Positions 3 to 36,847 of a DNA stretch of 64,000 nucleotides are shown piece after piece. Every line of letters begins with the position of its first letter. Positions within the stretch are counted from its first letter, which is position 1. The translations under genes and the position numbers were made by a program. The notes under the pieces are model-generated. The model was not told the DNA's origin. It searched no databases and was given only the letters and a program-made list of their open reading frames with translations. The stretch comes from Amphiscolops sp. MND2022 (Eukaryota): NCBI GenBank assembly GCA_964187785.1, contig OZ076409.1, positions 68,140,001 to 68,204,000 on the forward strand, given 5' to 3'.

Positions 3-296
3 AATGACCAATGTCGTTACTGCAAAGAAGCAGGCCACATAGTAGCTGACTGTCCAAAGTTAGCTAAACGTCGCAAACTTGAAGAGGATCCAGATGCTGA
101 GAAATGCCAAAACTGCAACACACCTGGACACGAAGAAGAAGACTGCTATTTCGGTGCTAATATGGAAAATCGTCCACTGAAATGGAACCTGACAGAAGCA
201 CAAAAGAAGACCATAGAAGAATATAAACAAGCCAAAAAACCAATCAGACCAAAACTAGAACGATCTCAACAATCCTCATCGAAGGATTTAAACTAG
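3..296 (+). CDS. gag: Gag C-terminus (nucleocapsid) with two CX2CX4HX4C zinc knuckles, partial
   Basis: Frame 3 translation contains CRYCKEAGHIVADC and CQNCNTPGHEEEDC. Stop TAG at 294-296. Confidence 0.92.
   Translation, partial: NDQCRYCKEAGHIVADCPKLAKRRKLEEDPDAEKCQNCNTPGHEEEDCYFGANMENRPLKWNLTEAQKKTIEEYKQAKKPIRPKLERSQQSSSKDLN
287..293 (+). promoter_or_regulatory. -1 ribosomal frameshift slippery heptamer U_UUA_AAC
   Basis: TTTAAAC is phased X_XXY_YYZ in the gag frame immediately before the gag stop. The -1 frame is open from 290 into the pol ORF, which has no upstream ATG of its own. Confidence 0.85.
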
Positions 297-3200
297 AAAC
301 GCCACGCCTTTACACAAAACCACCACAAAAACCAAACTCATCTGATGACTGGCAGCATCAGTTGAGCCCAAAACTCACAAAAACAACACTCGTACAAACA
401 GAATCAAACACCCAAACTTCTCAACACTCAACGGATAACCACTCAGAAGACTTATACGAACTCTTATGTGATGCTCCAGACAACTACTTCACAAAACAAC
501 AAACCCATCCTGAAATTGACCCAGACTTCAATATTCACCACGATTCACCTATTAAAAATCATGTCACTATCAAAACTTCTTGCAATGATCAAAAACAACC
601 CCTTCTAATTGAAGACCTAGCTGAACACCTACAATTTGACAAAGAACGCAACTTGTCATACCTACCAATTTCAACATCCTTGACATTGAAGCGCAAACGA
701 CACATGTACTACATTCCAATGGACTTCCAAAACCTCACACTTGATGGTCTTATTGACACAGGAGCTCTCACAAGTGCAATCTCCGAACAAGACCTCAACA
801 AAATCAAATTGCTCGCAAACGATGCGATAAAAGAAACTGGTCCTCCACCAAACTTCCAAATTATGGTGGCAAATGGACAACTAGAAGTCCCCATTGGTAC
901 AGTATTACTAGAGTTCGAAGTCGCAGACTTCATGTTAAAGGAAAACTTCATCATCATGAAAACCCTACCAAACCCGCTCATCGGATTGTGTTTCCTTCGC
1001 CGAAACAATGCAATTTTCGATGTCACACAAGGAATCTTAACCTTTCCTTACCTCTCAATGCAACTGAAACCCGATACCCAAACAGCAATACGGCAAGCAA
1101 CACCATTGTTTGCAGAAAATACCTACACACTCAGGCCAGGCGAAACACTTGCTATAGCAAGCAAAATGCCTCACCTGATGGACCATAATGCAACCGGAAT
1201 AGTCACTCCATCACAACAATTTGAAAACCACGATAGTATTTTTATTACAGCATCACTTAGCACAGTTAATAATAATGCTATCGGCTACCAGATCATCAAT
1301 TTTTCAGAATTGCCATATACAATAACCATTGACACCCATTTAGCGGATTTCAAAATTCTGACCCCAGAACAAATCAAACACATCCAACCAGTAGACCCAG
1401 CAGTACTATCGTTTATGATACAACATGAAGAAACCATAGAAGTCTACATCAACGAACTCCTCAAAGTACCACAATCAACTCCTGAACAAGAATCGTACTG
1501 GTTCCCTACCCCAGAAGACCCAGGCGATCCCGCAACATACACTCAGATACAACAACGTATATATAACGAACTCCTCGAGTTAAAGGAACTTGAAAAACTC
1601 AACCCACATGACAATGAATCATCCAGGAAAACTTTCCTCTCAAATTTCGACTGGTCTGACACAACACTCAGCTCAGACGAACAACAAGAGATTGAAGAAA
1701 TTCTCGTCGAATTCCATGATATTTTCGCCAGACACCGTTTTGATATCGGTATAAACCGCGAATTCAAAGTGAAATTAACACCCAACGACGACAGACCAGC
1801 TTACAGCCAGAGTCTGCCAACTCCAATCAACCTCAAAGATGACATCACAGGAGAACTTGCGCTTCTACACAAGTACGGTATAATCACAACTCTACCGTTT
1901 TCCAAATATGCAAGCCCGATTTTTGCACAACGCAAACCAAACGGGCGCCTTAGACTCCTAGTCGACCTCCGGAAAATCAATAATCTTATCACTGAAGATT
2001 ACGCCAATAATAACCACCCGGTAAGCACCCTATCTGATGCAGCCCAACACATGGCAGGAAAAAAGCTTTTCTGCAAACTGGATTGCTCCCAGGCTTACCA
2101 CTGCCTCCAAATGGCCGACTACCAATCTATCCAGATGCTCGCGTTTAACTTTGCAAGCAGAACATTTGCTTATCGACGCCTTGCCCAGGGTCTCAGTCGA
2201 TCTCTCTCCGCATTTTCAAGCTTCATGAGAGAATACCTAGACAGAGCAATTAAAGCAGATCAATGTGCCCAAAATGTCGATGATATCGGCATAGCAGCAA
2301 ACGACACAAAACAATTGTGTATAAACATCAAAACTGTTTTTGAATGCATCCGGAATGCCGGACTGAAACTCTCCATGTCGAAATGTCCTTTCGGAGTTAA
2401 ACAAGTCGACTTTTTGGGACGCACAATCACACCAGATGGAGTTGCCCCTCAAGCCGACAAAGTGAAAGATTTTTTGGCAAAACTCAAATTCCCAAAATCG
2501 AAAAAGGCACTACAAAGGTATATCGGATTCTTGAATTATTACCGAAACTATATACCTTGCCTTTCAGAACGACTCACCCCGTTTTTCAAACTCCTCAAAG
2601 AAACCTCCAAATTTTATGTCCCTACAAACTTGGTCGAAGACTTTACAAACCTCAATCAACTTTTGGAAAATTCTTGCCAACTCGCGTTGAAACAACCCTT
2701 GAAAGATAAACAACTCATAGTCATGTCCGATGCAAGCTTCACAGCTGCAGGATATGCCATCATGATTGAAGACGATCCCAATCAGAAGCTTCAATCCAAA
2801 CGAAAAACCTACGCACCCATTGCGTTTGGATCAAAAACGTTCAATCCAACACAAACGAAAATGTCAATCTATGCAAAAGAATTCCTCTCAATATATTTTG
2901 CATTCGTAGAGTTTGGACACCTCATGTGGGGGAGTACCTTCCCTGTCATCGTGTTCACGGATAATCGGTCTGTAACCCGGTTTTTTCAAACGAAAATGAT
3001 TCCTCCAGCGCTTTGGAATGCATGCGATTATGTATTACAATACAATTTTGTAATCGCCCATGTAGCTGGATCGATGAACACAGCCGCCGATTTTTTATCT
3101 AGAACCGAAGTTAACCCAACCGGGAAGCTCGAAATGACAATTCGCAACGATATTCACACAAAAGCAATTGAAGTGAATATACAATCAACTGGAACTGTCG

Positions 3201-5179
3201 AAGAAGAACAAATTTACATCCTTCCTGATGAAGAAATTGATTAAAATCAACTTTGGGAAGAAAAACAAAACACTCGCAATCAAGCACAAAACGAAACTCA
3301 CAATGACCCAGAGAACGACGTCTCTGAATTACAGCAATTTCACAAACCTACATCCGGATTGATCTCCTGCTCCTCTGGACACTTCAAGGACAATGCGAGG
3401 ATACGCCTTGAACAGAACAATGACATAGTCCTTCGAAACCTGAGAGCCAAAATAGAAGGCGAACCGTTTGATGAAATTGAATTAGCTTCCGATTTCAGAT
3501 ATCAACACTACTTACAAAACATAACACGAATCGAGATTAAACACGAAGTTCTCACACGAAAATACTATACAGATACAGGAATGATCTCGCATTATCAAAT
3601 CCTCTTACCAATCCAACTTCTTGAAGAACTACTTCAAGCCCTCCATGGACATAACTCAAACCATCCAGGAATTACCAAGATGATTCAAGAAACACGTCAA
3701 AAATATTACTACCCATGTATGGCCAAATACATAAAGAAATGGGTCAGTAATTGTCAGATTTGTATACAAACAAAACGTATCAACAATGATCTCCTCAGAA
3801 CCGAACTCCTTAATTGTCCCGAATGGGACCTTGGACCGGAAGACATCTTACAGATGGATATTTTGCCAAACCTCCCCCCACGCGGAGGCTACGATCACAT
3901 CATCACAGCAATAGATGTCTTCTCAAGGTATTTGTTTGCCTATCCTGCGACTCGAATTACCGCAACAGCAGTTTCAAAAGTCATAATGGATATCCTATGC
4001 AAACACACCTACCTTCCAACAACTATAATCACGGATCTAGGCACTCAATTCAACGCACAAGTCACTCATGAAATTGCGGCAGTGCTTGGAATCGAAATGA
4101 AACATGCCACAATGAAACATGCACAAACCATAGGACTCTTAGAAAGAACACATGCCTCAGTTAAAACACACCTAAAAGCCGCCACAGGCGAATTCAGGAA
4201 CAACTGGCACAAATATCTTCCTCTAGCAGTCCTTAATCATAACACAACATACCATGCATCACTCGGTTGTGAACCCTCACGAGTTTTCCATGGCCGCATA
4301 CCACACAATATCCTTGACTACAAACTTGGATACAATCCAAATCCGAAGTATCAACCACAAACTGACATTGCAGAAGAAATTCAAAAGCGCATGAGAACAC
4401 TTTTAGACCAAACTAAAAAGAATATCATGCAATCTTACCTTAAATACAAGGCCTACTACGATAGAAAAGCAAAAGCAGCCCCGTTGGAGACAACAGATTA
4501 CTGCTATATTCTTAATCCAAAAGCCGATACACAAGCAACGAAAATACCATTCCGAGAATTCAGATGGTGTGGACCTTATAAAGTTGAAAAAGTGCTCCCT
4601 AACAATAACTACATTGTGAGGAGACTTGGCACAAATAAAACCCAACTACTACATCGGATTCGTTTGCGGAAATTCACACCGCAGGCCCCTTTAGCAGACA
4701 TTTTTGTTCGTGAAACCGACTGGCAAAAAGATGATCAAATGACTATAGCAAATGATGATCTATATGCCCAATCATGGAACACGAATTTTGGAGCAAATCC
4801 ATTTGATGACATTCCCTCAGATGCAATACACAATACTGAGGATACCGAATATGTCCCAATTCAAATACCCGACAATAGCCGCCCACCCTCCCCAGTATCT
4901 TCAAAAAATAGTGGGGGGAGCCCAGTGGATCAGACCACTGAACCAGATCAAAATCACGGAAATCATGCTGATGAAATTCCACAACAATCAAATGATGATG
5001 ATAACAATACCCAAAAAACCCAAAAAGATACAAATATTTCAACAGATGATGATACTCAAAAAACTCCAGAAAATTCCCAAAATACCCCATTGCAAGAAGA
5101 ACCCATAAATACTCGTGGTGAAAAATACAACTTACGTCCTAACCCCAACCCAAATTACTCCGACTCATATAGATATTAA
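290..5179 (+). pseudogene. pol: Gypsy Pol polyprotein (protease, RT, RNase H, integrase), with one in-frame stop and a mutated RT motif
   Basis: LIDTGA protease; RT motifs LVDLRKIN and KLDCSQAY, with NVDD (2273-2284) in place of YxDD; RNase H SDAS...KEFL...TDN...ADFLSR; integrase HHCC, D-D-E and GPY. ORFs 362..3244 and 3359..5179 are in the same frame, separated only by TAA at 3242-3244. Confidence 0.93.
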
Positions 5180-5364: not shown

Positions 5365-8300
5365 TCAGTTTTTCTTTGACTTCACAATCTTGGACTTAGT
5401 CTTCTTGGACGCATCTTCAACTGAAGAACTAGAGCAACGATTCAGTGACACACTAATCCTGCTAAGACTAGGGTCAGGAGACGGGGAACTGTTTACACTT
5501 CCAGCTCTACTGACACTCGGAGTTGTTGAGGTAGATGAGACAGTAGGTTTTTCATGCTGTAAAACTGCCTTGCGATATCCAGTTTCAAACTTCCCCAGCA
5601 AAGCTGCTCTTCGCACTCCACTTCCCTTCATGAAGTTCCAAATGGAAAATTTTCTATCAGCCAATAGATCGGCCCCTCGACCCAAGAGACGGAAAACCCG
5701 ACTTATTGATTTGGGATCCCGATAAAGGCTGGAAACATGAGGAATGGAGTTGTAAGACATCTGGAGGCTTTTGACGCAAGATTGAAAACTCTCCTCGTCA
5801 GACGCTAAACCTTCCATCGGAACGATAAATGGTGGAGGCACTTCGATTCGTGGAGGCAAGCATAGGCTCGAGAATTTAAACAATTGAAATAATTCTGGTC
5901 GGCTTTGAAGCTCGTAGTTGGAAGCCAGAAACTGAATCCAATCATCGTACTCAGGGGGGTCATCAGAACGAAGTTTAGCCGCAAGTGATCGGTACTGACT
6001 AACGACCTTCACCTTAAAGCTTGAGAAAATCAAATTAGTAGTGACAAAGTGACTTGTCAGTCTCTCAATAGCAGTAGTGTAATTAATTTCGGGTCCGACG
6101 AGGAGGACAGCGGGATCAAAGGCTGACAGTCCTTTGACAAGTTTGGATTTGAGATTTTCATGTCTCAGCAACTGTTTGCAGAACGATTTGCCAAAGCTAG
6201 TGGACTGTTCTACAAATTTACTGGGACGAGGAAGTTTACTAGCTGCAACCAATTTGTGAAAATCTTCGTTAAGAACATAATCGTCTGGTGCTTTGTAGGG
6301 CAAGTCTGTCCGATCCAGGTCCAGTTGTAGAAAATTATCCCAATCAGATATACTCCCAAGCGAAGTATCAGGCAAGATACTTTGGAGCTGACTGTAAATG
6401 AAAATAGCAAACTGGCTGAAAGCACGGAATCCACCATCTACACTTTTCTGGACTTCGGAGAAGGCTGAAGTATCTGAAACACACCAAAAGTTACAATAGT
6501 ATTGCTTCTACCTAGCAGGAATGTACTAAGAATAAGCTGAAGAAGAAATCGTCATCATAAAAACACGTGCATAATTATCACGGTGAAAGGTAATTCTCTG
6601 ATGCTAAGCTGCACGATTATACGTTATTACACGAAACAAAGATAATAACTATACGTTATTATGCGGAACAAAGCATAGTGATTATACGTCACTATGCGGA
6701 ATGACCTATGGTGATTATACGTCACTATGCGGAATGACCTATGGTGATTATACGTTACTATGCGGAAAAGATACAAATGGTGATTATACGCCACTATACT
6801 GAATGAGATATATTGATTATACGTGATCATGCGTTTCAAGGAGTAGTGACTATACGTCAATATACAAAAACAGCAGAGTAACTGTTTGGGTTATTCTGAC
6901 TGAACGGGACTAGACATACGCATTAATGCGGATTGAAGAATGATGATTACTCATGAATATACGAGAAAAAAACAAAAGTACGCGATATTGTGGATTTTGG
7001 GATTTGAATTCCTGGAACAAGAGAGTACACGTGTACAAAACTACGAAGACAGAAAACGACACAACAAAAGGAAAGTATATAAAACGTGGTAACTAACAAT
7101 GGTCAAGAACACAACGAATGACGAAAAGGCGGGCTAAGTAGGCCGTGTCGAGGCGGGAACATTCATCCAGTGTGTTTGGCTATAACAGAAAGTACCATTG
7201 AGCAAAGAGAAATGCGTTGAGTTTTTATACAATACCTAGTTAACAAACAAATAACCTCTCGCATATGGAACCGGTATACAGGGAGTCTTGCCACCTGATT
7301 AAGGTGATCAACCACATGATCCCAGTTGTTGGATAACAGCTCAATAATCAAAGAGGCATCTTGAAGGGAGTACTCCAGACGGATCACAATCTAAAAAGAA
7401 GATGGGTACTACATAAAAAAGGATTACAGCACCAAATCAGAAATTACCAGGTATGCTAATTACCTCATGTAGCAGTGGTAATTTCTTCAACCAATCGCGG
7501 TCGAGGGCAGTTCTCAGCTTCATCAAGAGATAATCGAGTATAGTCCGAAAATCATGGCGCTCAATAATCTGTGTAGTCGGGACAGCTAGGCTCCTTTCGA
7601 GTTCTTCCGGTCCAAAGGTGTTGATAACGGAGATGTGTTGGTTTCCCGGGAGGCAATTTGACAGGCAATCACCTAATTTATCACCAAAGTCAATCAAGGC
7701 GGTACAAATTGGGGCTTCTTCGAAAAGACTGATAAACGACGAAATTATAGACAACGTTTTCCTTGGCAGTAGCATCCCACGAGGAGCATTTCCTAGGCAA
7801 ACGTGATGGAGTACGTTGCCAGACCAGAATTTAAGGATCAGGAACGTGTTGGTGGGTGTGTGCTGTAAAGCGAGAGAATAGTGTCCGGAAGCTGTTATTG
7901 CAGTTGCACAATATCCGATCAGTTTCCGAAACATGTAGACGAAGGTGCCCTGTATAACAAACAAAGTACACTATTAATTTATAGTAAATGCATTTTCCTT
8001 CAAAAGGTAACTTTCTGAAAGGTTACTCTGTTTTCAATCGAGGAGTGGATGTTATCAATCAAAAAAAATAATACTAACGAAAAGTCGCTGTTGACTCCAA
8101 TTTAGTTCACACGCCCCGTCGCTAGAAGTCAGTCGTGACAGCTCACCATAAATTCCGATTAAGCTTTTAACATGACCACCATGTCGGAGTCCGTGTTCAA
8201 GAATACAGATTTGCGAAAGGACCTTATCCGTCGGGTTGGTAACCGTATTGAAATTGGGGATGGTATCCTGTCCCACAAGGGGATGGCATGAGTCTAGTTG

Positions 8301-9759
8301 AGGTGCGATTGGGTAGTTATTCTTGGCCTTTTTCTTGGCTTCTTGAAGTTGAATCCCATACATTTCCCTGCCTTCTTTGTCGAAAAGCGCCATACCAGGT
8401 ATCTCCATTCGCATCCGATGTTCCTTCACTAGATGTGTTTCGGACTTGTAGTGAGATAATAATTCAAGGCTGCCTCTGCTCATGAGAGAAAGTTCAACCC
8501 GACAAACCCGACACCACCACTTATGGGGAGTCTTGTCTCTGTCGATTGGACCAGTGGCAGAAAATTTCAAAAATGGATGTTTTCTAAGCATTGCTCCCGT
8601 AAGAGAATATCGTGGTCGTCGACGTTTCCCACTAGCTATGACGTGCTCTTCCTGTAGTTCATCAGAATGAGCCCTGGCTTGGTCGTGGGATATCACTTCC
8701 TCTTGACTAGACGTTCCAACCATAGGGGCAGTCTCCATATCATCCACAATCGTTAGTGTCAGCGGTTGCTCGGGTCCGGTCTCGTCTCCAAGAACATACT
8801 CAGGTGGAATCCGCCCAAGGAAACTGCTTATTGTGAGAATTTCTCTCTTGGTAACGCTGATGTTCCCATGACCCGCCCCTGGCACAATGACGCCACTGAA
8901 TCCAACCTGTTCAGATGGAAACATCATGGGTAATGCACTAGAATGTGGCACATTTTGATCTGCCCTGTGAGTTACTGCAGTCGGTTGAGAAGGCCCAGCA
9001 ATTTGTGAAGAGTATGGATCAGTATGTGAGGAAAGTGTTTGCGGGGGTTCCTGATCAATGAATTCATCCACTATTTCACGACTGATGTTGGAAAAGGATC
9101 CCTCCATACCTTCCGTTGAAGTAACTTCTGACTCAGGATTAACTGGTGGTGGGGTAGGATTCCCTTCCTCTACAAGCTCTTGAGACGTATTCGGGGTTGC
9201 TGACTGCTGAATAGAGATGTCATTCGACGTTTCTTTCTCTATACTGATCTCCTCGCGGATTTGGAGCGGAGCAGTAATTGGTGAACTGTTCGTATCGGGG
9301 ACAGCGGAGCTCTTGGGGGAAGATGTCAACAAAGGTGTATAAACCTTACCTGGAGAATGGGATGTCGATAATTCATTGGTCTTTGGTTCGACTGAAACAA
9401 ATAAATTCTTTACCAAAATGAAACTGAGCGAGTGGCAATCGGTTTATGCTGACTGAACTCGGACGCGGGGACAGGAAATGAAAGAAAACCGGATGCTACT
9501 TAGAAATTAGAAACGGAAACGTTTCGAAAAAACTCGAAATTGGTCTGCGAAAACACGGATCACTTTCATTTATTGAGTCTGGCCAACTCAATAGAACGAA
9601 TTTCCTCTAAATCAACTAAACCGAATCATGTTGAAAGTTGAACTTACCAGAATCAGCCCAAAATGAAGGATTGTAGTCTCTTCCTCCAAAGTATTGCGGT
9701 GATTGTCCTTTCCTCGTTCTCCTTTTCCCCGGGGAACTTCCCTCCTGTTGTTCCTCCAT
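5365..9759 (-). CDS. Six-exon antisense gene (~1078 aa): disordered N-terminus, BED-type zinc finger, hAT-transposase-like body
   Basis: Exons 9759-9648, 9391-8079, 7949-7464, 7390-7256, 7179-7098 and 6473-5365 join through five GT-AG introns with matching phases (1,0,0,0,1) into 3237 nt with no internal stop. Zinc finger WCRVC...HYKSETH at 8433-8519. An extra donor (GTAAGG) at 9349 may add another intron. Confidence 0.8.
6615..6965 (+). repeat. Array 1 of 32-36 bp units, core TATACG-N4-TATGCG (8 clear units, 2 degenerate)
   Basis: Cores start at 6618, 6650, 6683, 6716, 6749, 6785, 6818 and 6851. The array lies inside intron 5 (6474-7097) of the antisense gene. Confidence 0.9.
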
Positions 9760-10117
9760 CCAAAAGATGCGAAGAGTATGTAATTAACGATGAATAATTA
9801 AAGAGTAGAATGTCTGATAAAGAGTATCAACTAAACGAATCTAGAAATAAATCTGAAACTGGGACAGATAAAAAGAATGTTTTGATCTGTAACGTGTTAG
9901 ACAAAATACTGACGTACTATTTTCACTTTATTGACTGTTCAAACGAAAGACACAATGCAAAAGGCGTGGCGTAACAAGGCAAAGAAGCAAATGAAACGAG
10001 CTTTGAGCAAATATACCAAAAGAATACTGCAATCTGATTGGCTAATTAAATGTCAATCACTTCTGTCAGAGTGATTGACTGACTCATCATAAAGCTACCA
10101 ACAATTCACTGTATGAG

Positions 10118-10266
10118 AGTATGTGGCAGTATGCGGAATTGCAACAATGATTATACGGTGGTATACGAAATTGCAATGAAGACTATGCGGCAGCATGCGG
10201 AATTGCAGATGATGGTTATGCGGCAGTATGCGGATTGAGTGGTGACGTATACTCAGCACCCTGCGG
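10118..10266 (+). repeat. Array 2 of 32-33 bp units, core TATRCG-N4-TATRCG (about 5 units)
   Basis: Cores at 10120, 10152, 10184, 10217 and ~10250, between the divergent antisense gene (ATG 9759) and the sense ORF (ATG 11060). Confidence 0.8.
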
Positions 10267-11059: not shown

Positions 11060-12115
11060 ATGAACCCACTGCAATTTAACCTGGACGAAGATTTGGGCTA
11101 CTCGCCTATTTCACCTGATGTCATCGACATCTCCAGTGGTTCTGGGGACGAGTTCGTGGTAGAAGCTGGCAACATCCCCCAGTTGGACGAGAAATTCAGG
11201 ATCAACACGATGGGGACAAACATGATGACTGCTTTCATGGGTGCAGCAACAGCGTCACTACTTCCCAACACCGACCATGTTGACCAATCAGGATCTATAG
11301 ATACGGCTGGAACTCGTATCGAGAGGGACATTATGGATCTGATAGAAGAGGGCCCTTCCTCCTCTCCTGAATCTCCGCTGTCTTTCATAGATTCGCAATT
11401 TGAAGGGATTGGAATGTCCCCTGTTAATGTTAGTGCTGAACCCAGGATCCAACTGAACAGCTATGGGCGTCCAGTCGCAGCAATATTGCCTACACCAAGA
11501 GCCACAATACAACAACCGAATGAGATCGCCAGGCCAGTGCCCACTTACCCCCCAAATTTTTCACGTGAAACACATGATTCACACCAACTTCGAGCAATTA
11601 ATTCAGACGCTCAAGAAACTGTAAACCTGCCGATTCATCAACCAGAAGGGGTTTACCCTCAAGCAACTTTTGTCCCAGAGGGAATAACGTACCCGGCCAT
11701 CAATGACATCACACCAGTAGTGATACATCTACCCCCTAGAAACATGGGAATTCCTCAAGTCAACTTCAACGATCAATTTCAACAAGTAGTCCAAGCAGGT
11801 TTCCCGTTCAATGTTCTACACAGCACCAACATCCTACTGATGCCGACTAATGAACGACAGAATTTCAGACTGTTCCCAACGGTCATGCCCAACGTCTCTG
11901 GGTATTGCGATTGGTGTGGACGCACCTTTGATCAAGTGGCTCTAGAAACGTTGGGTGACTATCTTGGGGCGACAGCTTATAATGAAGAAACAGTAAGGGA
12001 CCGTGGAGTCAGATCCAGAGCCTTCATAGACGGATTTGAAGCTGCGTTGTTTATCTTCAAGAACGCGGGACTGTCGCGTCCCCAAAGGTGCGATGGGTCC
12101 GGTGTGCATCTTTAA
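11060..12115 (+). CDS. 351-aa orphan accessory ORF: acidic/Pro/Gln-rich N-terminus, C-terminal CxxC domain
   Basis: Uninterrupted ATG-to-TAA ORF in AT-rich surroundings, with YCDWCG followed by a helical-looking C-terminus. No family recognised. Confidence 0.65.
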   Translation: MNPLQFNLDEDLGYSPISPDVIDISSGSGDEFVVEAGNIPQLDEKFRINTMGTNMMTAFMGAATASLLPNTDHVDQSGSIDTAGTRIERDIMDLIEEGPSSSPESPLSFIDSQFEGIGMSPVNVSAEPRIQLNSYGRPVAAILPTPRATIQQPNEIARPVPTYPPNFSRETHDSHQLRAINSDAQETVNLPIHQPEGVYPQATFVPEGITYPAINDITPVVIHLPPRNMGIPQVNFNDQFQQVVQAGFPFNVLHSTNILLMPTNERQNFRLFPTVMPNVSGYCDWCGRTFDQVALETLGDYLGATAYNEETVRDRGVRSRAFIDGFEAALFIFKNAGLSRPQRCDGSGVHL

Positions 12116-12344
12116 GAAGATAAACAACGCCTACAATGTTGTGTCAAACTCTAAAAACTCATCCACTAGTCATGTAACTTGTGTAAATATATTACTTCTA
12201 ATCAGGGTCTCTTAATTGTTTTACTTTGTAAAAGTAACATCTTGATGTACTTTGGGCAACTCCAAAAGCCTTAATGATGATTTTATTAGTTCAAATAACA
12301 CATGTGCAGTGCTACTAATTTCATTCTGAACGAATGGTATTAAT

Positions 12345-12595
12345 TGGATACGTCATCATGCGATATGATTACTATTATTATGCATCACTGCGCGCAGTTG
12401 TAACTCTCAGTATACGTCATTATGTGTTTCAACCATTAATGAGTATACGTCACTATACGTATTTGTGACTTTCATTATGCGTCATTATGCGGTTTATGCA
12501 GTGATGAATATACGTCAGTATACATATTTTCTCATCCAAATTTATATGCGTCATCCCACGGTTCAAGGAGTAGCGAGTACTCGGCATTGTGCGTT
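12345..12595 (+). repeat. Array 3 of 32-36 bp units, core TATRCGTCA-N-TATRCG (8 units)
   Basis: Cores at 12347, 12379, 12411, 12444, 12476, 12509, 12545 and 12578. Shares the 12-mer TTCAAGGAGTAG (12562-12573) with array 1 (6835-6846). Confidence 0.88.
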
Positions 12596-12734
12596 TCTCG
12601 CTATGTTCCTTTTAATTTGAAGGATTAACTTTATGCTTCCATATATAGTGTTAAAAGTCCATAAAATATCGTTGTTTAATACCTTTCTAGGGTCTTTTAG
12701 ACAGCGGAATCGTTTCTGTATGTCATGATATGAT

Positions 12735-12752
12735 GACTCATAGTATATAAAT
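12735..12752 (+). promoter_or_regulatory. Candidate LTR core promoter (TGACTCA site plus TATATAAATA box)
   Basis: Both motifs lie ~300 bp upstream of the gag-like ATG at 13044 and just downstream of array 3. Function is inferred. Confidence 0.4.
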
Positions 12753-13043
12753 AGAATGACGACATTCTGACGAGGCGCTATTATTAGGTTTTCCCGGAAA
12801 TGATGCTAGTAAAATTGCGTGTCATCCTTTTGTAATTTTTGGATTTTCTTTAGAAATAGAAGGAGCTAACACAATTTGAATTACTTTCCTCAAGTCCAGT
12901 CCGTTTTTACTGGACCATAAAGCAATCATTGTAAATCATCTTCATATTTGGACTTCCTAAACAACACAGTCTATTTTCATACAAACTTTCATCTCAAATT
13001 CAAATTCTTGACCCTGCAAATCGATCGTTTTCACTTGAGAAAG

Positions 13044-13620
13044 ATGGGGAATAAGAGAAACAGGAGATCTAGAAGGCTAGAAACACCGTCTCCAGACAGA
13101 AACCCAATTGAGGCACAAGTAGATACGTCAACTCAAGGTAATGAGACTTTGACTAATTTTAACTCAGTTTTACAGGAGAATTTAGGTGAAAACGTCTCAG
13201 AAAACCCAATGGTTGAACCAAGCCAAATTAGTAACGAAATCCAAGCTTGGACCCAGATTATAGAACAAAAGAATAATGATAGAATCGAGAGAATGAGAGA
13301 AGAAATAGACAACAAGTTTGAAGCAATTCTGAAAGAAATCAAGTCAAACAAAAGTGCATCGACAGTAACAAACCCAAGATCAGAGCTTAATGAAAATCAG
13401 GAACCCCAAGCGTCGGGGTCTAAAACTAACAAGTCTACAGGAGTTCACGCATCTTTAAACGAAAATTCAGATTCAGAAAATGAAGATCATCCTCTAAGAG
13501 CTTCTAAAATGAAAGACTTGAGACATCCTGCTAAGCCTATGTTTCGGGATGAATCAGATGTAGATGTAACAATACACTCAGACGAAGAATCTGATGCAGA
13601 GTCCTTAGAGGATTATCACA
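13044..13620 (+). CDS. Gag-like N-terminal ORF truncated at the element end
   Basis: Basic start MGNKRNRRSRR, coiled coil (IQAWTQIIEQKNNDRIERMREEIDNKFEAILKEIK) and acidic tail. The frame runs to ...DYH at TATCACA and stops 14 nt later in apparent flanking DNA. Confidence 0.55.
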
Positions 13621-14167
13621 CACGGTCAGAGTAATGCGAAGTACTGATGAAAAGCAATGAATCAATTTTCCGCCAGGGCAACATGTTGCAAAAAGTGTTT
13701 ACTACTCATAGGGGTAAGACTTTAGGAGTTTTAATTACCTATTTTTTTGTAAACTGTCCGAAACAAAAAGGAGAAATACCCTATGAAGCCAAAAAAATTT
13801 GACGAAAAAAACGCAGAATGAAAACTTTGTACGGTCTCAAAGTGCGAAAAATCCAACTTGCTCATGGAAAAGACACTTCGGGATTTCAAGACAACCATTC
13901 TGAAGCTCCTAAAAATTTTTCGGATGAACTTCAAAAAGCAAATCAAAACTGGGGACGTATCAGTGGCAAAAAAATGGACGCCATCCTGCTTCGAGGTGAT
14001 TTTGTAGTTCATGTTAGAGGCTTTGGTTGCGTTCACAAGTACTTACAACTTTTTGTATATGTGCGAAGTTAACAAAAAGAAGACCGATTGTGATGAATCG
14101 ACGAAAAAATACTAGAAATATATACTAGAAATAGAAATAGAAATACTACAAATGATTGCTTATAAAT

Positions 14168-14474
14168 TGTTGAAAGTGACTTCCAAATTTCGCATCAATG
14201 AAAACAACTCATCAATGAAAATTCATCAATGGATACTAGAGACTTGAAACTTAAAACTGCTTAACAATTGTCTTGAAACTGTTGAAAACATTCTGATATC
14301 TCCAAAACTTGATGAAATTCTTCCGTTACTCCACTTTTCCTCTCACAGCAAAGCAAACTGACCCAGATTTCTGAGACGGGTCAAAATACGTTATGTTTTT
14401 TTATTTTCTTTGTCCCCCTCAGAAATCTGGGTCAATTCAGTAAACGGCCGTCAACTTAAATTAACGGATCAGCA
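14168..14474 (+). repeat. BEL-1 5' LTR
   Basis: TGTTGAAAGTGAC...GATCAGCA, homologous to 20430-20727. Confidence 0.85.
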
Positions 14475-17400
14475 TTTTTTCTATGGTGCCGCGACTAATG
14501 TGACGTTCCCTTTGGACCTTTTTAGCAGTTTGGAGCTGTCGTCCTCTGAAGTTTCGTCATCTACACTAACCCGGTGAGCCTGTTCCAAAAAAGCACGCTT
14601 CACGTGCGAAGGTTTTTTTGTTAGTGCAATTTGAGAAACCATGGTTCGGTTCAAGTGAAAAAAGTCATTATGTCGAAAAAACTGCTTCGAAGCCGGAACA
14701 TACTAAAAGACGAGCTCGAAGAGGCACAAGAAAGGCTCTTGTCCTATGTCAGGAGGGTTGGACGTTACGTTACGTTGAAAAACAATTGAAAACATGCAAA
14801 GAAATACTTTCAGAGACTGATGAGAAAATCCTTCAACTAATTGAAAGCGCTGAGCACTAATCCGAAAACGAACTATATCCGCAGTGGATTAGCAAAACTA
14901 GCGAAGAAAATGATGCATTTTGTGCTCAGGTTAGAAAATACTTGAAGCAGGGAAAATCACCCAGTGATACGCTCAGCAGCATAGTTAGAAAGTCAACAAA
15001 TTCCACAGCATCGTCTGAAAAACTCCGACTTGAAGCTAGCTTACGTCCACAAGAACTAGAACGACGAGCCGAAGAGAACTTTTGTCTTGCTAAAGCAACA
15101 ACTGACTCAGAGTTGATGCAATTGGAAGAAAAAAACCGACGGCAAGTAGCAGATGCAAAAATTCTTGAAGAGCTTTTCGACGAAACTATTTCTAAGAAGA
15201 AATCGAGTAGTACGTCATACGAATCGTCTACTCAGCGAACTGAAAAATGGGTAACTGAAGTTGCAGAAACATGTTTTCAACAACCAAGGATTGATACCGA
15301 AAGCAATCCAATCGTCACCGAAGCTGTTCATGTGAACGCTAACTCAGTCCCGGAAGATGTTCATAGAGTACGATCAGTTCTAATTAGTCAACCATTCTCC
15401 GTTGCTACGCAGTCTCAAGGTACTTTGCTTGATTTGGAACGGATCCAACTACACAAGGAATCCCACTTCGACTCTCAAGCGAATTCATTTCACGTTCAGA
15501 AACCCATCTCACTATTTGACGAAGCCCTCTCCAACGTGTCTCTTACAAAGAACAGTTTCAGCAGAATTACAGGAAACGAGTCTCTCGAAAACAACCAAAA
15601 GTCAACTCCATCACGTCAGCATACATCAATACGCGATAACAATGTTGACGACAGTCCCCAGACAAATGTCAGCGTAAGACCTGTCATCCACGAAAATCTT
15701 TGACTGCAGACTAACATACCAGAAAAGGTTGAAATCTTCAATCAGCAACCGACCAAAAGACCACCAACCGCTGTTCCAGAACCTCCCGCAACGCGTAATA
15801 CAGTTGAAGAAATTGTAGCAAGAAATCATGTTCATAACGTTTGGCCCTCAAAGGAGCTACCGAAGCATATAAACGTGTGCACCTCTCCTTCTTATAGCAA
15901 TTGTCAGCCGGTCTCTCAAAACGACATTGATCAACCGTCAAAAACAACTTGTGTTTCAAACCTGTTTGTGGCCCAACAGCCAATCCTATACAACACTTCT
16001 CATCAACATTTAGCCGCCTATCATTCCTTCCGACAAGAATCTGATCAGCCAATGGCTTACCAACCGTTAGGTTCTCATCAACCAGCCCTTGATATTCTGA
16101 CTTTCAACTCGAAACTTTCAGTTCCTTACCGACAAGAAGCTGATTGTATTTACCAAACCGCCCATCAGACACCAGTTGCACACCGTACACCGTCTAGTAA
16201 AGGAAGAACATCGCTCAAGCACCCATGCTAACAGTCACAACTCATGTGGTAACCCTACTACCATCTATCAACGCCCAGCTGTTTCTTACCGACCAGGAAC
16301 AGACAACCCCCACACGGTGCCGACAACTTAGCCGAACTTCTCGCTTTTGACAAGCGGGATCCATTGTCCGAATGGAAGTTAAGTTGCTTCGATGGAAACC
16401 CTGTGGATTGGCTCGAATGATTTGGCCAATTCAAAAGTGTCATCGATTTTTCTCACCTCTCCAACGATGTCAAATCAACCTAACTGAAAACGTAAGTTTC
16501 GGGGAAAGCTAAAGCCGCTATTCCATATTCGCCTACTGTGGAACAATGTACGAAGAAGCACTTCGAACCTTGCCACGGAAGTTTGGACAACCACAGGCAG
16601 TTGTGTCAGCATACTTGGAGAGACTTTCGAAATACCCGCTCGTGAAAACACATTCTTCGGAAAGCATCATAGACTTCGCTACAACGATGGGAAGTCTTGT
16701 TGGTGTTTTCAAATCTGTTGGATACGAAGCCAATTTGAACAGCACCAGCGTTTTGAATCAAGCTGAACTTCTGCCCAACCTCAAAGAAGCATGGTTATTG
16801 TTCACTGTCAAACAGTCTCTAGAGCGACCGTCACTTCAAGAGTTCAACACATGGCTTCAGCAAAAGGTCGAAGCGCATGATCGCATGCAGACTGTTCACT
16901 CTCAGTCATCGTCGTCGCCAATCTACAGCAAGCAGCCGAGCCAATTACCCCAGCAGCCGAAGATCAAATTCACCAAACGTTTCTCGTCATCCGCAAAAGA
17001 AAAAAAGAAAACAGCGAATATCACAAAAACATCTGTCCATGTGTTCAGGAGCTCATTTGCTGTATCGCTGCAGCAAATTCCGCAACCAAACTACAAACGA
17101 ACGCATCAGGTTCGCGGTTGAGAAAAATTTGTGTTTCTCATGTCTACAAGGAACGCATTCATTCCGCCAATGCCCTACAAAATACTCATGTCTAAAACAA
17201 GGATGCAAAAGCTCTCACAGTGTTTTGCTTCATGGGGCGGAACGCGTGTTCTCAAAGTCATCATCATCAGTACCACAGCTTCAAAACACAGCCGAATCTT
17301 CATCAAAGAACTCTACAATCGCAGCCGCAATAACTTGTAAAAATCTTCTGCAGTTAGCAGAGGTAAACATTGCGTATAAGGGTAGAACTCGAAGAGTCCT

Positions 17401-20400
17401 TGCGATGCTGGATTCTGGAAGTACCCATACTTGGATCGCCGAAAACATTGCCGAAGAACTTGGTCTGCCCGGAGAAGAGCAGAGCATTCGACTTTTCGGC
17501 ATCAACAACGAAAAGGACTCACCACCAAAACGCGTAGCTTTCAACGTCACCGCAGCACATCATAGTAACATACAACATTCCTCACATGAAGTCTACGCTT
17601 ACACAAAAGCCAACCTTAGCATTGGTAAGGTTTCATAAAAAGTCACATCCTTGAAGAAGACATATCAACAGCTAAACCTTTGCCAAACGTCGTCGTCAAC
17701 TACCAAGACGTTGTCCTACGTCTTGATCAAGATCCCTACGAGTGCATCCAACCACTTGAATACAGAGTCGGTCAGCCCAACCAACCTATCGCAGTGCGCA
17801 CAGCCCTTGGATGGGTCCTTGTGGTCATGTGTCCAATCAAGCTTTGAAAGAATGTTCCACCTTTAAAGTTGTCGCCACTAAGATCAACACCTAGCCAACC
17901 AGGTTCAACATTGGAGGGAACTAGAGTCATATGGTTCCAGCAAAACTGGTGACCCACAATCATTGGAAGATCAAAATGCCTTGAAGATTTTGGAAGCTAC
18001 AACATATCACGATGGAAGCTGCTTTGTCGTGGGAAAGTTGTGGTCTTCTGAAGCGTCCTCTTTGCCGATCAATTATTACTACGCCTTAGCACAGCTTCGA
18101 GCTTTGGAGAAACGCCTTGACCGGGACCCAGCACTGAAAGAAAGATATGCCAGCATAATCAAAGAAGACATACAGAAAGAATACGTGATAGAAGTACCAT
18201 CTGCAGAAATTTTTGGAACGTCTCTTCGTCAATGGTATTCACCCAACCAACCAGTACAACACCCGCTCAAACCGGACAATGTTCGTAGAGTACTAAATGG
18301 AGCGGTAAAGTTCTGCGATGTAACGCTAAACTCAACCCTTCTTTGTGGACCTGTTCTTCTTCAAAATTTGCTACAATTTTTTGTTAAGGTTTCGACAACA
18401 CCAATATGCCGTCTCAGCTGACATAGAGGAATTGTTTCTTCAAGAGGGTGTACCAGAAAAAAACCAACTGTCTTTACGATTCCTCTGGAGAGATACTCCT
18501 TCAAAAGTAATCAAAGTCTACCAGTACACACGTCACCTCTTTGGTGCAAAAGACAACCCAACTTGGACCAACTACGCCACGAACAGAACGGGCGTAGACA
18601 ATGCAGCCAAGTTTCCTGAATCAGCTCTCGCTGTGAAACAAAATTTCCACATGGATGACTACTTAGATTCGCGTCCAACTTTGAGTCACTAGAGAATGAT
18701 CTCATCCAACTCCTTTCAAATGGGGGCTTCAAGCTAATAATCAGCAATGCCCCACTGCTAGCAGACCGCCTCAACACTTTCGCCTATTCACATCACAACC
18801 GACAAACAAAATTGTCTTCTGCCAGCTCGATACAAAACAATTTAGGAAAACCCCAACAAACACGATTTCATCCCCACGACAGAGAACCAGCGAATCCACA
18901 CAACTTGGATCCTCTAAAGTATCTCATCCCAGTCCGAGATAACAAACTACTAGACCTAGTGCATTGAAAGTTAACGCAATGGAAAACATAATACCAGTAA
19001 AAAAAGATGTCATTTGGAGACGCAGTCCACACTTCACCGTCAGAAGCTGCACATGCCACGTGTCCCGAGTCTTCAAAAATCAAGCAATGCGAGGATTGTC
19101 CAAGTTTTGCCTCAATAGCATCACCTGGAACTCCAGCAAACCCATCCGTGCTTGGTTTCCGTTGGAATACCGATCAAGACACCCTGATTGTTAGTCGTGG
19201 AACTACTCCAGACTTGATCGGGAAGACAATTACGCAGCGACTTGTTCTTAGTACCGTATCTTCAGTTTTTGATTCCATCCGGACTAATTGCTCCGTTCGC
19301 CATAAGAGCCCTTCTACTCTTGAAACAACTCTGGAAGAGCACCGGTCAACAATGGGACGAAAAAAATCCCGAAGATTCACAATCAAAGTTCCTGGAATGG
19401 TGTTCTGAACTTGAGAACGTATCAAAAATTGCAGTACCTAGAGTCTTTTCCAGAAGCCGAACTGGCTGTACGAGCTTCATGTTTCTGGCGATGCGTCAGT
19501 TGAAGCCATCGCCGCATGCGCCTACCTTCGACAGCCAGACGGTAGGGCAGATAAAAGAAGCCAAACAGCTTTCATAATTGGAAAAATCCCAGTGGCCCCA
19601 ATGAAACTGCTAACTATTCCCAAACTTCAAGCCGCTTTGCTCGCATCACGTTTGAAACGTTTCGTCGAAGATTCACTAGTTATACCCATCAACAAAGTCA
19701 ATCTGTGGACCGACAGTACCACTGTTTGCCAATGCATTACAAAATCTGCTTCAAAACAACCAATTTTCATCACTAATCGCCTTTCAGAGATTCTAGAGCT
19801 CACAGCAATGGATCAATGGAAGTTTGTTCCTAGTAGCCTCAACCCTGCTGACTGTTCTACAGGGGTTTCCCTGCAAACTGTCGCATATCCCAACTCTCAG
19901 TTCCAAGCAAAATATGACCCATCTTCAGCGAAAACATGTTTGAAAGAATCAGAAGAAGAAAACGAAGAAGAAGAAAAAGAAGAAGAAGAAAGCCGACAAT
20001 CAGCAGCTACAATATCCAGACAAATAGTTTCCGCAGCCCTTCAATATAATTTTAGGCCACAAGTGATTCCTTCGAATCGTTTCAGCAACAACAATAAACT
20101 ACTACGAGTTTTTGCATACAATTTGTGCCTTCTCCAAAGTCATTTTGTGTTAAGACAAACTACTAAAATTTCACACCCTGAAGAATACCTAACTTCATTC
20201 TTTCTCTGAAGGAATCTTTTGCCGAAGAACTCAAACACCTACGGAGGAATCAAAATCTTCCGAGTCACTCGCCACGCGGAAACTACCCTTTGGCCCGGGT
20301 GTGCGAGGTTTACTCTGACAGCAAGGGAGTTGCAAGATCTGCCAAAATTATGACCAGGGAGGCAGTTTTGATGCGCCCTGTCAATAAATTGGCCAGATTG

Positions 20401-20429
20401 TGGAACGTCAACAACGCTACCCCCAAAGA

Positions 20430-20727
20430 CGTTAAAAGTGACTACCAAAATTCGCATGAATGAAAACTCATGAATGAAAACTCATCAATGGAAATTAGTG
20501 ACTTGAAACTCGAAATTGCTAAAAAAATTTCTTTAAACTGTTAAAAACCTTCTGATGTCTCTAAAATTTGATGGAATTCTTTTGTTACTCCGTTTTTCCT
20601 CTCACAGCAATGAAAACTGACCTAGATTTCAGAGACGAGTCAAACTACGTTGTGCTTTTTTGTTTGTTCCCTCAGACATCTGGGCCATTTCGGTAACCGG
20701 CCGTCAACTTGAATTAGCGAAACAGCA
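20430..20727 (+). repeat. BEL-1 3' LTR
   Basis: (C)GTTAAAAGTGAC...AACAGCA, homologous to 14168-14474. Confidence 0.85.
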
Positions 20728-23700
20728 TTTATACTTAGCATAGTGGATCAGTCTTTGCCATCGAACTGGTCTGCGCGAGTCCGAATCTGCGACACCGCTT
20801 CTTTTTGATTTGTTTGTTCCTGTATTACTGAACTGTGATATTGATCAATTATTTAAACTGACACTTAATCTTGTTTTCTCATTTATAACATTTAACGACC
20901 GTTGCTCTTTGTGTATACGTACAAATCTGTAAACAACGTGCATAGACTTTTTTGTTGTCCCCTCGGCTGTAAATGCCTAGTTTGCTAGTTACGAACCAGC
21001 TGATAACCAGTCCCCCATTCCTCAATTCCTTGATCATGTATCTTTCATTCATACCGTCGATAAACGTAATCAAACACAGGCCTCTCACTTTGAGGCAAGA
21101 TTCTTTTCTTTAGTCCGAATTTTCTATTGAATTCCCTCACTGTAGCTTGAGAGCTGGCCTGGAACATTGGTGACTTCGTCAACAGCAGATGGTTCAAGTG
21201 GTTCAGACGGTTCTGGTGCTGTGTTGAAGCTTTATCAGTTGGATTCATCGCGGCGAGCTCACTATACGGTTAACAGCAATCCAGCAAGCCGGTGGACTAC
21301 TCGAGGATGTCCAAGTAGAGTTGGAATTCCTAAATTATTGTCGCGATATGCTGTCTGAGTTGGATGCTCAGATACATTTCATTTAAGACGCGACGACATA
21401 GAGGTCGACGTGGAGGATGGTACTGGTGTGTTCTTGGCAGCAGAAAAAGAAGTGAAGTGAAGTCAGGGCATTATCAAAAGTTGCAGCCTCCAAGCACACA
21501 CAGAGCAGCGGCTCCAGCAAGTGGCAGTCTGGCCACAAAGCTCTCTAAGCTGACCCTTCCTTCATTCACTGGTGAATACACACAGTGGGTGTTTTTCTGG
21601 GACCACTTTTAACACTGGTTGACAGCAAAGTTCACATGGCCAACGGTGAGAAGCTATGGTACATCAAGGTTTCACTGAAGGGTGATGCAGCTCAGATAGT
21701 TTCTTCCCTGTTGGTCACTGGTGCAAACTACAACAAAGCGAAGCAAAAATTAGAAAGGAGCTTCAACAACAAGTGTTCAATTTTAAAGGCGCACTTAGCT
21801 GAAATTCATGCCCGACCAGTTGTAAAGAAGGAGTCAAATGTCGAGCTGCAGAAGATGCTGGAATCGACAAATGAACTTTTGGAAGAACTAGAAACTGTTG
21901 CCTGTCAATGGCCTTTTCGTGGCACTTGCAACGGGGGGCTTCATACTTCATTGCACTCTGAACGTCCGGCCGATCAGCAAAGTGGTGTGACGAGTTGGGC
22001 AACATTCGGTAGTCTTTATGTGCTTCTGTCAACAGCAATGGTTGGCATAGATGATACAGCTGGAAAAACACTGTTGTTTTGTGCCTCGCTGGATTCTGGG
22101 ACCCAAAACGTCCTTCATCACATTGGATGCTGCATCAAATCTCAACCTTGTTCGTTCAACAGTCGATGTGAAGATCTCTGAAACTGGTGAACAGCAACAA
22201 GTCGCAAAGGAAGGCTTCAAAAGTTGCCGGTTTCAGCACTTGTTCTGAAATCAATCGCCGGTAATGTTCCTTCTACGTCCTTCATGTTGAAACAATTGGA
22301 GACAATAAGAAGTGTAGCACTAGCAGACAAAAACTTTATTGAGACTGGCGCCGTTCAATTGTTTCTGGGACCGGATGCTTACGAGGATCTCAACGAGAGG
22401 AAGAAGGATCATGGGTTGCACTATTGCAATCTATCTTAGGCTGGGTCGTGACTGAAGTGATGTCCCATACGCGTGGCTGTCGATATCAACCCTTCCAAGT
22501 TGCAGTGTGGAACTGGACCTTGCTCGAGTCTGGGTAGTAGACGAGATTTCTCGAAAGAAGTCGATATTCAAAAAAATTGTCAGTGTGTGGAACATTACGA
22601 CACTACAACCTATGTTGCAGATGACGACAGCATCCCAGTTCGTCTCCCTTTATTTTTTGAGGTACGTCCCTCAACACAGAAAACAGCCAAGAAGAGATTC
22701 TTCGCTTTGGAACAAAAACTCAAGGATCGCAAGTTTGAGAAGCGGCAGTATCATGACTTCATCGAAAAATATTTGGATATGGGTCATCTGCAAGAAGCTC
22801 CTCAGACTTCAGGCTTACGTTACTACGTACCCCACTGTCAATACAAACCTTTGTGTCTAAATGTGTCTCTCAAACTCAGTCGATGTATCAACAACAGAAT
22901 TCATTCACGTACCGTCAGAGGAGATGGGGTTGCCAGTCGATCTGTGCTCACGTGAATAGCTAGCAATGGCTCAGCAGAAGTTCTACTTAAAATGACCATC
23001 GTGGTTAGGATCATCGTTTCCTGACCATTTTCACACTCCCCTCACAAACGAGGAAACCCGACAAGAAGTCAAATCCTTGATTTCAATTCAGCGTTCGAGA
23101 AAACTTTCGAGGCGATCTTTGGTCGGGAGGAAATGGCTTTCGCCTTCTATGCGATGGTCGAAGCAGATCATGTGGTGCACTTTGAAGCCGAGTTCCGAGC
23201 CCTCCGAAATGGTGAGTCCATCAACCCGAAGAACCCATTCATGGAAAACGGCGTCATCAGTGTCGGTGGCAGATTGATCCACTCAATGACTGAGGTACCC
23301 TTCACTGGTGTTGCACCGAAGCAAACAGACAACACCTGCAATCCACGATGCCCACAAGCGAAACCTTCATGTTGGTTCCACAGAAACCGTGGAAGAAATG
23401 AGACTTCCAATCTGGGTCACACTCTCAAGGAGAAGGCGTCAGCGTGCATCAAGAAGTGTGTCACGTGCTTCCGCTTCACTTCAGGTTCAACGCATCAGCT
23501 CATGGGTGACTTGCTGAGGCTCCCGAACCTGCTCTCTATTGTGTAGACCTTGACTTCGCCGGACCTCTAACTTTGAAAAAGGCAACTCAATGTTTCAAGG
23601 GTAACAAGGCTGTTTTTGTGTTTTTAATCCAAGGCTAATCATCTAGAGGCAGTTTCGTCACTGTTATAAGATGCAAGGGTTGCAGCGCTGAGACGATGCA

Positions 23701-26008
23701 TTGCAAGACGTGGCATTCCATGTCAAACTGTGTCCGACAATGCAACCAACATCGTGGGTGCAAGGCGTGACCTCAATGAGTTGGAGAAAGTAGTCCAGGC
23801 AGGGGCGCAATCTTTCAGCAGCCTTGTTTGGCTCGTCATTTCTCCTCGCTCATCTAAGTTGGACGAACTATAGAAAGCAGTGGTGAAGTTGATGAAGCAC
23901 CATTTGCAGTGGGTCATCATGGGGAATTCGATTCTCACGTGTGAAGAGATGACAACGGTCCTGTGTCAAATAGTACAAGTCCTGAACAATCGTCCACTGA
24001 TGCCTCTCACAAACGACCCAGATGACATTCTTGCGGTCACTTCGTCGATGCTAGTCAAGGGCAGCCAATTGGATGCTATCTCACAACCCGTTTGCAGAGG
24101 ACTGATGCTTGACAAAGAAACGACTCCGCGCTCGTCAACAGCTATTCTCTCAATTCTGGAAGCGATGGGCTTCTGAGTGTAGAGCATCACTTCAGCCTTG
24201 AAGCAAATGGCGGTAAGAACGTGCGAACTTCTCAGTTGATGACGTAGTGCTGATCACAAACGATAGCATTCCACCACTGCATTATAGTATTGGTCGAGTG
24301 ATGAAATTGAAGCTAAGTCATGATAGCTTAGCTCGAGTTTCATTGGTTAGAACATCAAGCGGTCAAGTCACAAGGCCTGTCAGCAAGCTGAGACCTCTGC
24401 CAGTTGAGGACAATGACCTCCACAGTGCAAACGTGAAACGTCATGCACACAATTAGTAGCAGCGCGAACGACAGAGAAATTGCGTGCAGTGGTACAGTGC
24501 TTACGTTAAAGTAACAGTGATGCAATGTGAGTCACCAGGTTGGTTGTTCGGCCGTGCACACGCATCAACTCCTGCCTCGCTCTGGCGAGTAGGTTGCAGT
24601 ATTTTCAAGGGAATTTTGCTCAGGTCCGGATTCTCTCCTCTTGGAGGGTTGAAAGGGGGTAAGGGAGGAGGCTTCGTGTGTGAAGAGAATAAAGGAAGAC
24701 AGCCTACATTTCAAACTTTTATGTGCAACAACGACACCGAACTCGAATAGCCAAAGTACATTCAACTCCCCTTTTGTATGATGATGGTGCAGTGGTAAAC
24801 CTAAATAATCATGTATCAGAAAGTATGGACTTCGGATCCTCGAATCATAAAACTTTTTGTGGCATCATAAACTCAAACTTCTGTCATATTGCAATTTTAG
24901 TTTATTCAATCGTAGTTCTTGTGCTAATCATAGATTCGATGAAGTTGGTATGTCATCGCCGGCAGGATGTTGGCGCACGAAATTGAAGTGATCGTAAAAT
25001 ATTATTCGTCCACTTGGCACAGTGCTTACGCTAAAATAACAGTGATGCAATGTGAGTCACCAGGTTGGTTGTTCGGCCGTGCACACGCATCAACTCCTGC
25101 CTCGCTCTGGCGAGTAGGTTGCAATATTTTAAAAAAAAACTTTGCTCAGATCCGGATTCTCTCCCCACGGAGGGATGAAAGGGGGCAAGGGAGGAGGCTT
25201 CGTGTGTGGAGAGAAGAAAGGACGACAGCCTACATTTTAAACTTTTATGTGCAACAGCGACACCGAACTCAAATACCCAAAGTACATTCAACTCCCGTTT
25301 TGTATGATGACGGTGCAGTGGTAAACCTAAATGTTCATGTATCAGAAAGTATGGAGTTCGGATCCCCGAATCATTAAACTTTTTGTGACATCTTAAACTC
25401 AAACTTTTATCATGTAGCAATTTTAGTTTGTTCAATCGTAACTCTTGTGCTAATCATACATTCAATGAAGTTGGTGTCATTGCCGGCAGGATGTTGGCGC
25501 ACGAAATCAAAATGATCGCAAAATATTTTTGTCCACTTCGCACAGTGGATCAATCTTTGCATTCGAATCGGTCCGTGCGAATTCGAATCCGCGACGGCGC
25601 TTTTTTGACTTCTTTGTTCCCGTATCACTGAAATGTGTTATTGTTCAATCATACTATCTGACATTTATTCATAATGCTCATTTCTCTTATACAATACTCA
25701 GCGATTGTTGGTCTAGGTACATAAACACATCTGTAAACAAACTGCATAGACATTTTTGTTGTCCCTTTGGCTGTAAATGCCCAGTTTGCTAGTTGAGAAC
25801 CAGCTGATAACCTGTCGCCTATCCCTGATTTCTTCTTATCTGTTGCCTTTCATTCATACCGTCAATAAACGTTATCAAATATAGTCCTTTTTCTTTGAGA
25901 CAAGATTCAATTCTTCAGTAGCTTGAACTCTATCTCGAGTTCCCTCAATCTCTCTAGTTTGATTTCTTTTGAATTTCCCTGCTGTAACTTGAGAGCTACC
26001 TCAAAACC
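20728..26008 (+). mobile_element. Decayed, internally deleted BEL/Pao element (BEL-2)
   Basis: Gag LPSFTGEY..W, protease LDSGTQ, YYVPH, then most of RT/RH missing; integrase remnants (SDNATN, LNNRPL, RPVSKL) to 24456. Flanked by homologous ~440-480 bp direct repeats (20728-21166 and 25530-26008). The first is followed by a PBS-like TTGGTGAC. Ends are uncertain. Confidence 0.7.
24489..25545 (+). repeat. Tandem duplication of a ~525 bp unit in the BEL-2 3' region
   Basis: CAGTGCTTACG at 24495 and 25020, with colinear high identity throughout. Confidence 0.9.
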
Positions 26009-36806: not shown

Positions 36807-36847
36807 TATTGGTGCCGCGCCTACCCAGGAAAGGAAAACGTTTAAAA

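Follow-up and report, generated by a model that had tools for sequence, protein, structure and literature searches.

Several long terminal repeat (LTR) retrotransposons carry an antisense accessory gene. In plant Gypsy elements (maize Grande gene23, rice RIRE2, the Retand TRP28 open reading frames, ORFs) and in Botrytis Boty, it lies between pol and the 3' LTR, is found in nearly all copies and is often accompanied by tandem arrays. Grande gene23, which has a promoter of its own, is nuclear (PMC11963269, PMC7264820). Both papers give the origin of such ORFs as unknown, with no similarity to other transposable elements. The HTLV-1 HBZ and HTLV-2 APH-2 proteins are also antisense-encoded nuclear regulators of an LTR element (PMC11963269). 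We claim no homology with these viral proteins. Neither is known to be transposase-derived. For LTR retrotransposons in general, reviews state that neither the origin nor the function of antisense accessory genes is known. Here, we describe a gene of this kind within a Gypsy retrotransposon of Amphiscolops sp. MND2022, in a 64,000-nucleotide stretch of contig OZ076409.1 (assembly GCA_964187785.1, positions 68,140,001 to 68,204,000, forward strand) that we call the window and whose numbering we use throughout. The gene differs from the plant and fungal antisense ORFs by five predicted introns, a feature for which the main texts of PMC11963269 and PMC7264820 contain no mention, and by a traceable hAT-like architecture.

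Our literature search, incomplete in coverage, returned no report of an intron-bearing, hAT-derived antisense ORF in a Gypsy element. Similar genes may be overlooked elsewhere, because ORF-based annotation splits such a gene into unnamed pieces. Its origin can be traced, and a possible target motif and natural variants in the thousands are available, so that both the origin and the function of this gene become testable. We regard its structure and linkage as solid and its hAT origin as likely, and we infer its function.

The antisense gene has predicted introns and is a constant part of the element

The first-pass annotation had joined four minus-strand ORFs and two small exons, through five GT-AG introns of compatible phase, into one protein of 1078 aa, and this model holds. 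The six exons (Table 1) add up to 3237 nt, that is 1078 codons and a stop, with zero internal stops by exon-by-exon phase arithmetic; the introns, of phases 1, 0, 0, 0 and 1 and of 256, 129, 73, 76 and 624 nt, have GT donors and AG acceptors at all five positions. Use of an additional in-frame acceptor at 9350 would trim exon 2 by 14 codons. The motifs quoted from the first reading, including nuclear localization signal (NLS)-like stretches, a zinc finger and hAT-like segments, were located in the sequence, and S, T, P and E make up 45% of the first 248 aa.

We compared the gene with 45 other copies: 5 close, 20 mid-distance (61-81% identity) and 20 deep (21-54% aa identity in exon 6). These were picked from top matches, the mid-distance set being chosen to span subfamilies, and form a selection rather than a census: an exon 6 search of the same genome gave 6649 candidates, of which 125, most with open frames, were scored and supplied the mid-distance copies, and the deep clades were reached by searches with three distant proteins and one further search. 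In 20 diverged copies, the splice dinucleotides are kept while the flanking sequence varies. All 20 have AG at the acceptor of each exon from 3 to 6 and GT at the exon 4 and exon 5 donors; the exon 2 donor is GT in 19 and the exon 3 donor in 18, and the exon 2 acceptor is AG in 17, the other three being unresolved. The exon 1 donor reads GT in 12 copies and GC in 3, and is unresolved or not found in 5; the GC donors, with an otherwise perfect consensus, belong to one subfamily (L048, L050, L052). In 15 of the 20 deep copies, some only ~20% identical in protein, AG and GT enclose an exon 3 of exactly 486 nt, and the remaining five have indels in this exon.

The first-pass annotation had also stated that antisense introns survive retrotransposition. 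They are indeed kept in most copies, presumably because the packaged RNA is the opposite strand, but have been lost precisely in some subfamilies. Among the deep copies, intron 4 is missing to the base in L088, L089 and L094, leaving a 217-nt exon (135 + 82), and intron 5 is missing precisely in L100; in 16 other deep copies, intron 4 spans 66-188 nt with GT-AG ends. Because these losses join the exons exactly as predicted, they support the exon model beyond chance. They further point to spliced antisense RNA entering the element by recombination, implying that it can be written back.

Over the folded parts, dN/dS is 0.07-0.10 for unsaturated pairs, few of which qualify; on the same basis, the C-terminal half of exon 2 gives 0.075 and its acidic N-terminal half 0.50. 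Selection seen between subfamilies would be selection acting on the replicating element. At the level of sequence, the gene structure is thus established through conservation of the predicted splice sites and frame. Two copies have internal tandem duplications, of exons 1-3 in L050 and of the end of pol with exons 4-6 in L098.

As first proposed, the gene lies inside a Gypsy retrotransposon. The element has paired LTRs and a 5-bp target-site duplication, and the linkage of the gene to pol is constant. It is convergent to pol in all 45 copies (5/5 close, 20/20 mid-distance, 20/20 deep). In every mid-distance copy, exons 2-6 are collinear and converge on the same pol, with ORF B and the LTR beyond them; the deep copy L100 lacks exon 2. 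Trees of the integrase and of the gene, compared with L070, L076, L095 and L098 left out, are concordant at depth (Spearman 0.90; 18/34 splits and 5/7 well-supported splits shared). Their tips are discordant, the window integrase grouping with L082, L084 and L086 and the window gene with L048, L050 and L052, which suggests cassette exchange. The gene evolves ~6 times faster than the integrase. Candidate copies number in the thousands, with many young subfamilies, and distant relatives are present in other assemblies. The gene could have been an ordinary nested hAT transposon, passively carried, as nested insertions are common in the window. However, a search around the gene for inverted repeats with an 8-bp duplication gave 0 candidates (71 inverted 11-mers versus 89 in shuffles), and the presence of the gene in all 45 copies across a deep radiation, under purifying selection, effectively refutes passive carriage. 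It is virtually certain that the antisense gene is real and a constant part of the element.

The predicted protein resembles a hAT transposase that has probably lost its catalytic residues

Structure models were made of exons 3 and 6 separately. The exon 3 model contains an RNase H core matching Hermes 153-266, the exon 6 model gives a weak fold match to Hermes 368-609, and the two matches are collinear. Exon 2 resembles hAT N-termini, with hAT/BED atlas neighbours at 0.85-0.91 and no zf-BED Pfam match. The predicted protein resembles hAT transposases (Hermes, ZBED/ZNF862-type derivatives) in the succession of a finger, an N-terminal domain, the RNase H core, a helical insertion and C-terminal helices, and differs from them by the lack of conserved DDE and CxxH residues, of terminal inverted repeats (TIRs) and of an 8-bp duplication, by its long acidic N-extension and by its spread through retrotransposition. 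Pfam searches gave no match to the hAT dimerisation domain PF05699 in 33 members, and PF04195, the domain of the Retand TRP28 ORFs, is absent. The fold and neighbour signals, weak but concordant, agree with the hAT ancestry put forward in the first-pass annotation: descent from a DDE transposase is highly probable, and descent from a hAT transposase in particular is probable.

The loss of catalytic residues, likewise proposed from the first reading, is supported in 37 copies, with positions mapped from the fold ranges and from hAT motifs. The first catalytic Asp position is occupied by Q in 20 copies, E in 8, other residues in 9 and D in 0, and the second by G in 22, D in 11 and N in 4. The CxxH motif that closes strand 5 in hAT transposases is absent from these copies, which also have no conserved Glu after the last core helix or CLP-like motif. 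The Trp at the end of exon 3 is invariant in 22/22 aligned copies, as are the finger ligands, and presumably occupies the position of the conserved hAT Trp. Such a Trp is noted for Hermes in PMC5499845. The antisense protein is very probably catalytically dead.

TATRCG arrays are candidate targets of the protein

Three parts of the element contain 32-33-bp repeats with paired TATRCG motifs spaced 10 bp apart, namely intron 5, the region upstream of exon 1 and the LTR. Matches lie at the same places in 20/20 mid-distance copies despite near-saturated synonymous sites. A clade ~40% identical has arrays built on the same core, with a period of 40 bp, in the LTR, in the upstream region and, within the gene, in intron 3. 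The spacings correspond to whole helical turns, as would be expected for protein sites. As an observation on the finger helix, the residue preceding the first His ligand is Ser in clades with arrays and His, Gly or Arg in clades without, which is a lead only, because about four independent clades are involved.

Two types of known proteins offer parallels. Hermes brings multiple BED fingers onto phased subterminal repeats (PMC10368747). VANC of VANDAL elements and TnpA of Spm are element-encoded accessory proteins paired with tandem motif arrays, those of VANC lying in introns and non-coding regions (PMC5735166). TnpA is itself derived from a transposase, and transposases can activate transcription (10.64898/2026.08.24.746577). 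VANC and TnpA, however, serve plant DNA transposons and act on DNA methylation, whereas the protein here sits in an LTR retrotransposon and probably comes from a different class of element, and there is no footprint of CpG methylation: CpG is neither depleted nor hypermutable in the element or the rest of the window, which may argue against a methylation-based version of the mechanism.

We consider the following scenario, leaning slightly towards its core, that the protein binds and regulates its own element. Transcription of the antisense gene would begin in the region between this gene and ORF B, which lie head to head, and splicing would yield a nuclear protein, the introns being kept through retrotransposition. 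Having retained the hAT scaffold, the protein may present several fingers to the phased repeats, much as Hermes does on subterminal repeats, and, once bound, would promote transcription of the element, with the acidic disordered N-part as a putative activation or anti-silencing region. Whether the complete reading, a dead hAT-derived nuclear finger protein that binds repeated motifs in its own element and likely promotes its transcription, is right appears to us evenly balanced. More tentatively, a Gypsy lineage might long ago have taken over a hAT transposase together with its introns and turned it into a sequence-specific transcription factor of its own, the subterminal-repeat code of the transposon being rebuilt as phased motif arrays in LTR and introns. 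If true, this would represent VANC-like self-activation of a Gypsy lineage, which may be why the lineage has radiated so widely in this genome, and a retrotransposon would join hosts and DNA transposons among the domesticators of transposases.

Several observations weigh against this reading. Arrays are found in only two of four clades; L098-L102 have 3-5 scattered TATRCG matches and the nine deepest copies 0-3, and no substitute array was found in them. That genes are kept in clades without arrays would suit a protein acting after reverse transcription, binding LTR DNA for nuclear import, synapsis or target choice, as would the array in the LTR, the basic NLS-like stretches and a hAT scaffold that naturally holds DNA ends. 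Yet two of the three arrays are internal, the LTR array sits 330-460 bp from the LTR start and the insertions have ordinary 5-bp duplications, and we consider such an integration helper unlikely. At the first catalytic position, the deepest clade has Glu, and two Asp are conserved elsewhere (D119 invariant, D133 near-invariant). Together with the invariant W153 and the strong selection on the whole scaffold, these residues could mean that the protein has kept an enzymatic function, its active site being rearranged, perhaps as a nuclease with element or host DNA as substrate; with the first position non-acidic in 29/37 copies, the second most often G, and neither CxxH nor a conserved third Glu, this is very improbable.

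Ancestry is subject to similar reservations. ISCth4 outscores Hermes for exon 3 alone, sequence searches with the antisense protein reach no significant match, and the preference for hAT over other insertion-domain DDE families rests on signals that agree with one another but are weak. The models show a helix before and a helical insertion after the RNase H-like core, a layout that Mutator/IS256-type enzymes also have, and the ancestor may have been such a protein, or a ZBED/ZNF862-like host gene, already domesticated when it was captured together with its introns, with the function described above or that of a captured host regulator. But exon 6 matches Hermes and not ISCth4 among the 50 matches listed, the neighbours of exon 2 are hAT families, and a free-standing relative is missing from the examined copies, so that we judge a non-hAT ancestor quite unlikely.

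The sign of regulation may also be reversed. The same dead hAT-derived binder might limit the transcription or copy number of the element, or poison competing hAT transposases through mixed oligomers. Host-domesticated transposases often repress, the array upstream of the gene suggests feedback, and the antisense RNA is complementary to the genome RNA. Nevertheless, the abundance of candidate copies, the many young subfamilies and the acidic N-part fit an activator better, and the arrays mark the element itself rather than hAT ends, making repression rather unlikely.

The host element and its surroundings

The features of the element within the window are collected in Table 1.

Table 1. Positions of the antisense gene, the arrays and the host Gypsy element in the window
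Feature	Position	Strand	Remarks
Gypsy pol	227..5179	+	in-frame stop at 3242-3244 in the window copy
Exon 6	5365..6473	-	predicted helical insertion-domain and C-terminal part, basic tail
TATRCG array, intron 5	6615..6860	+	tandem, 33-bp period
Exon 5	7098..7179	-	88-96% aa identity in 20/20 mid-distance copies
Exon 4	7256..7390	-	likely insertion domain
Exon 3	7464..7949	-	predicted RNase H-like DDE core without conserved catalytic Asp; model pLDDT 81.8
Exon 2	8079..9391	-	acidic S/T/P/E-rich region, second basic stretch, CCHH finger, hAT-like N-terminal domain
Zinc finger C-x2-C-x16-H-x5-H	8433..8513	-	four ligands invariant in 22/22 aligned copies
Exon 1	9648..9759	-	start codon, basic NLS-like stretch; found by tblastn in 16/20 mid-distance copies
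TATRCG array, upstream of exon 1	10113..10265	+	32-bp period; between the divergent gene and ORF B
ORF B, second accessory ORF	11060..12115	+	C-x2-C motif; stop inside 3' LTR
3' LTR (TG...CA)	12072..13620	+	99.0% identical over 1550 bp to 5' LTR at L031:7634-9182
TATRCG array, LTR	12398..12529	+	inside the LTR
Target-site duplication, whole retrotransposon	13621..13625		5 bp

On the plus strand, Pfam domains of protease, reverse transcriptase, RNase H and integrase follow one another as is typical of Gypsy elements. The whole element measures 15,987 bp; its 5' LTR lies upstream of the window and is followed by a primer-site-like TGG. An upstream open frame corresponds to gag, with sub-threshold matches to Retrotrans_gag (E 0.006) and Ty3_capsid (E 0.007); as it starts within the LTR and continues through the primer site (window 13044-13620; L031:8606-10000), ~190 gag codons are duplicated in each LTR. 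The five close copies match the window element at 98-99% over the whole length, antisense gene included, and 5-bp target duplications are present in 6/6 close copies, two of which share flanks and probably represent one insertion. Clear LTR pairs and the same primer site were found in the deep copies L090 and L101 (2/4 tested), the other two giving a partial or over-long match. ORF B has no Pfam match and is present in 20/20 mid-distance and 16/20 deep copies; even in the deepest clade its C-x2-C region is conserved, at 33% over 72 aa, and its dN/dS is 0.12. Directly upstream and in opposite orientation, L031:1-5900 and L032 (minus strand) are older broken relatives of the same Gypsy family, at ~70% DNA identity.

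Elsewhere in the window, three elements (14206-20665, 21576-24176 and 36779-41987) are presumably BEL/Pao-like, a label we assign from motif appearance. The first has 84% identical terminal repeats, and in the third, long open frames are flanked by a 97% identical repeat (36565, 44183). Finally, inverted arrays of a 26-bp unit at 57432-57884 are MITE- or foldback-like.
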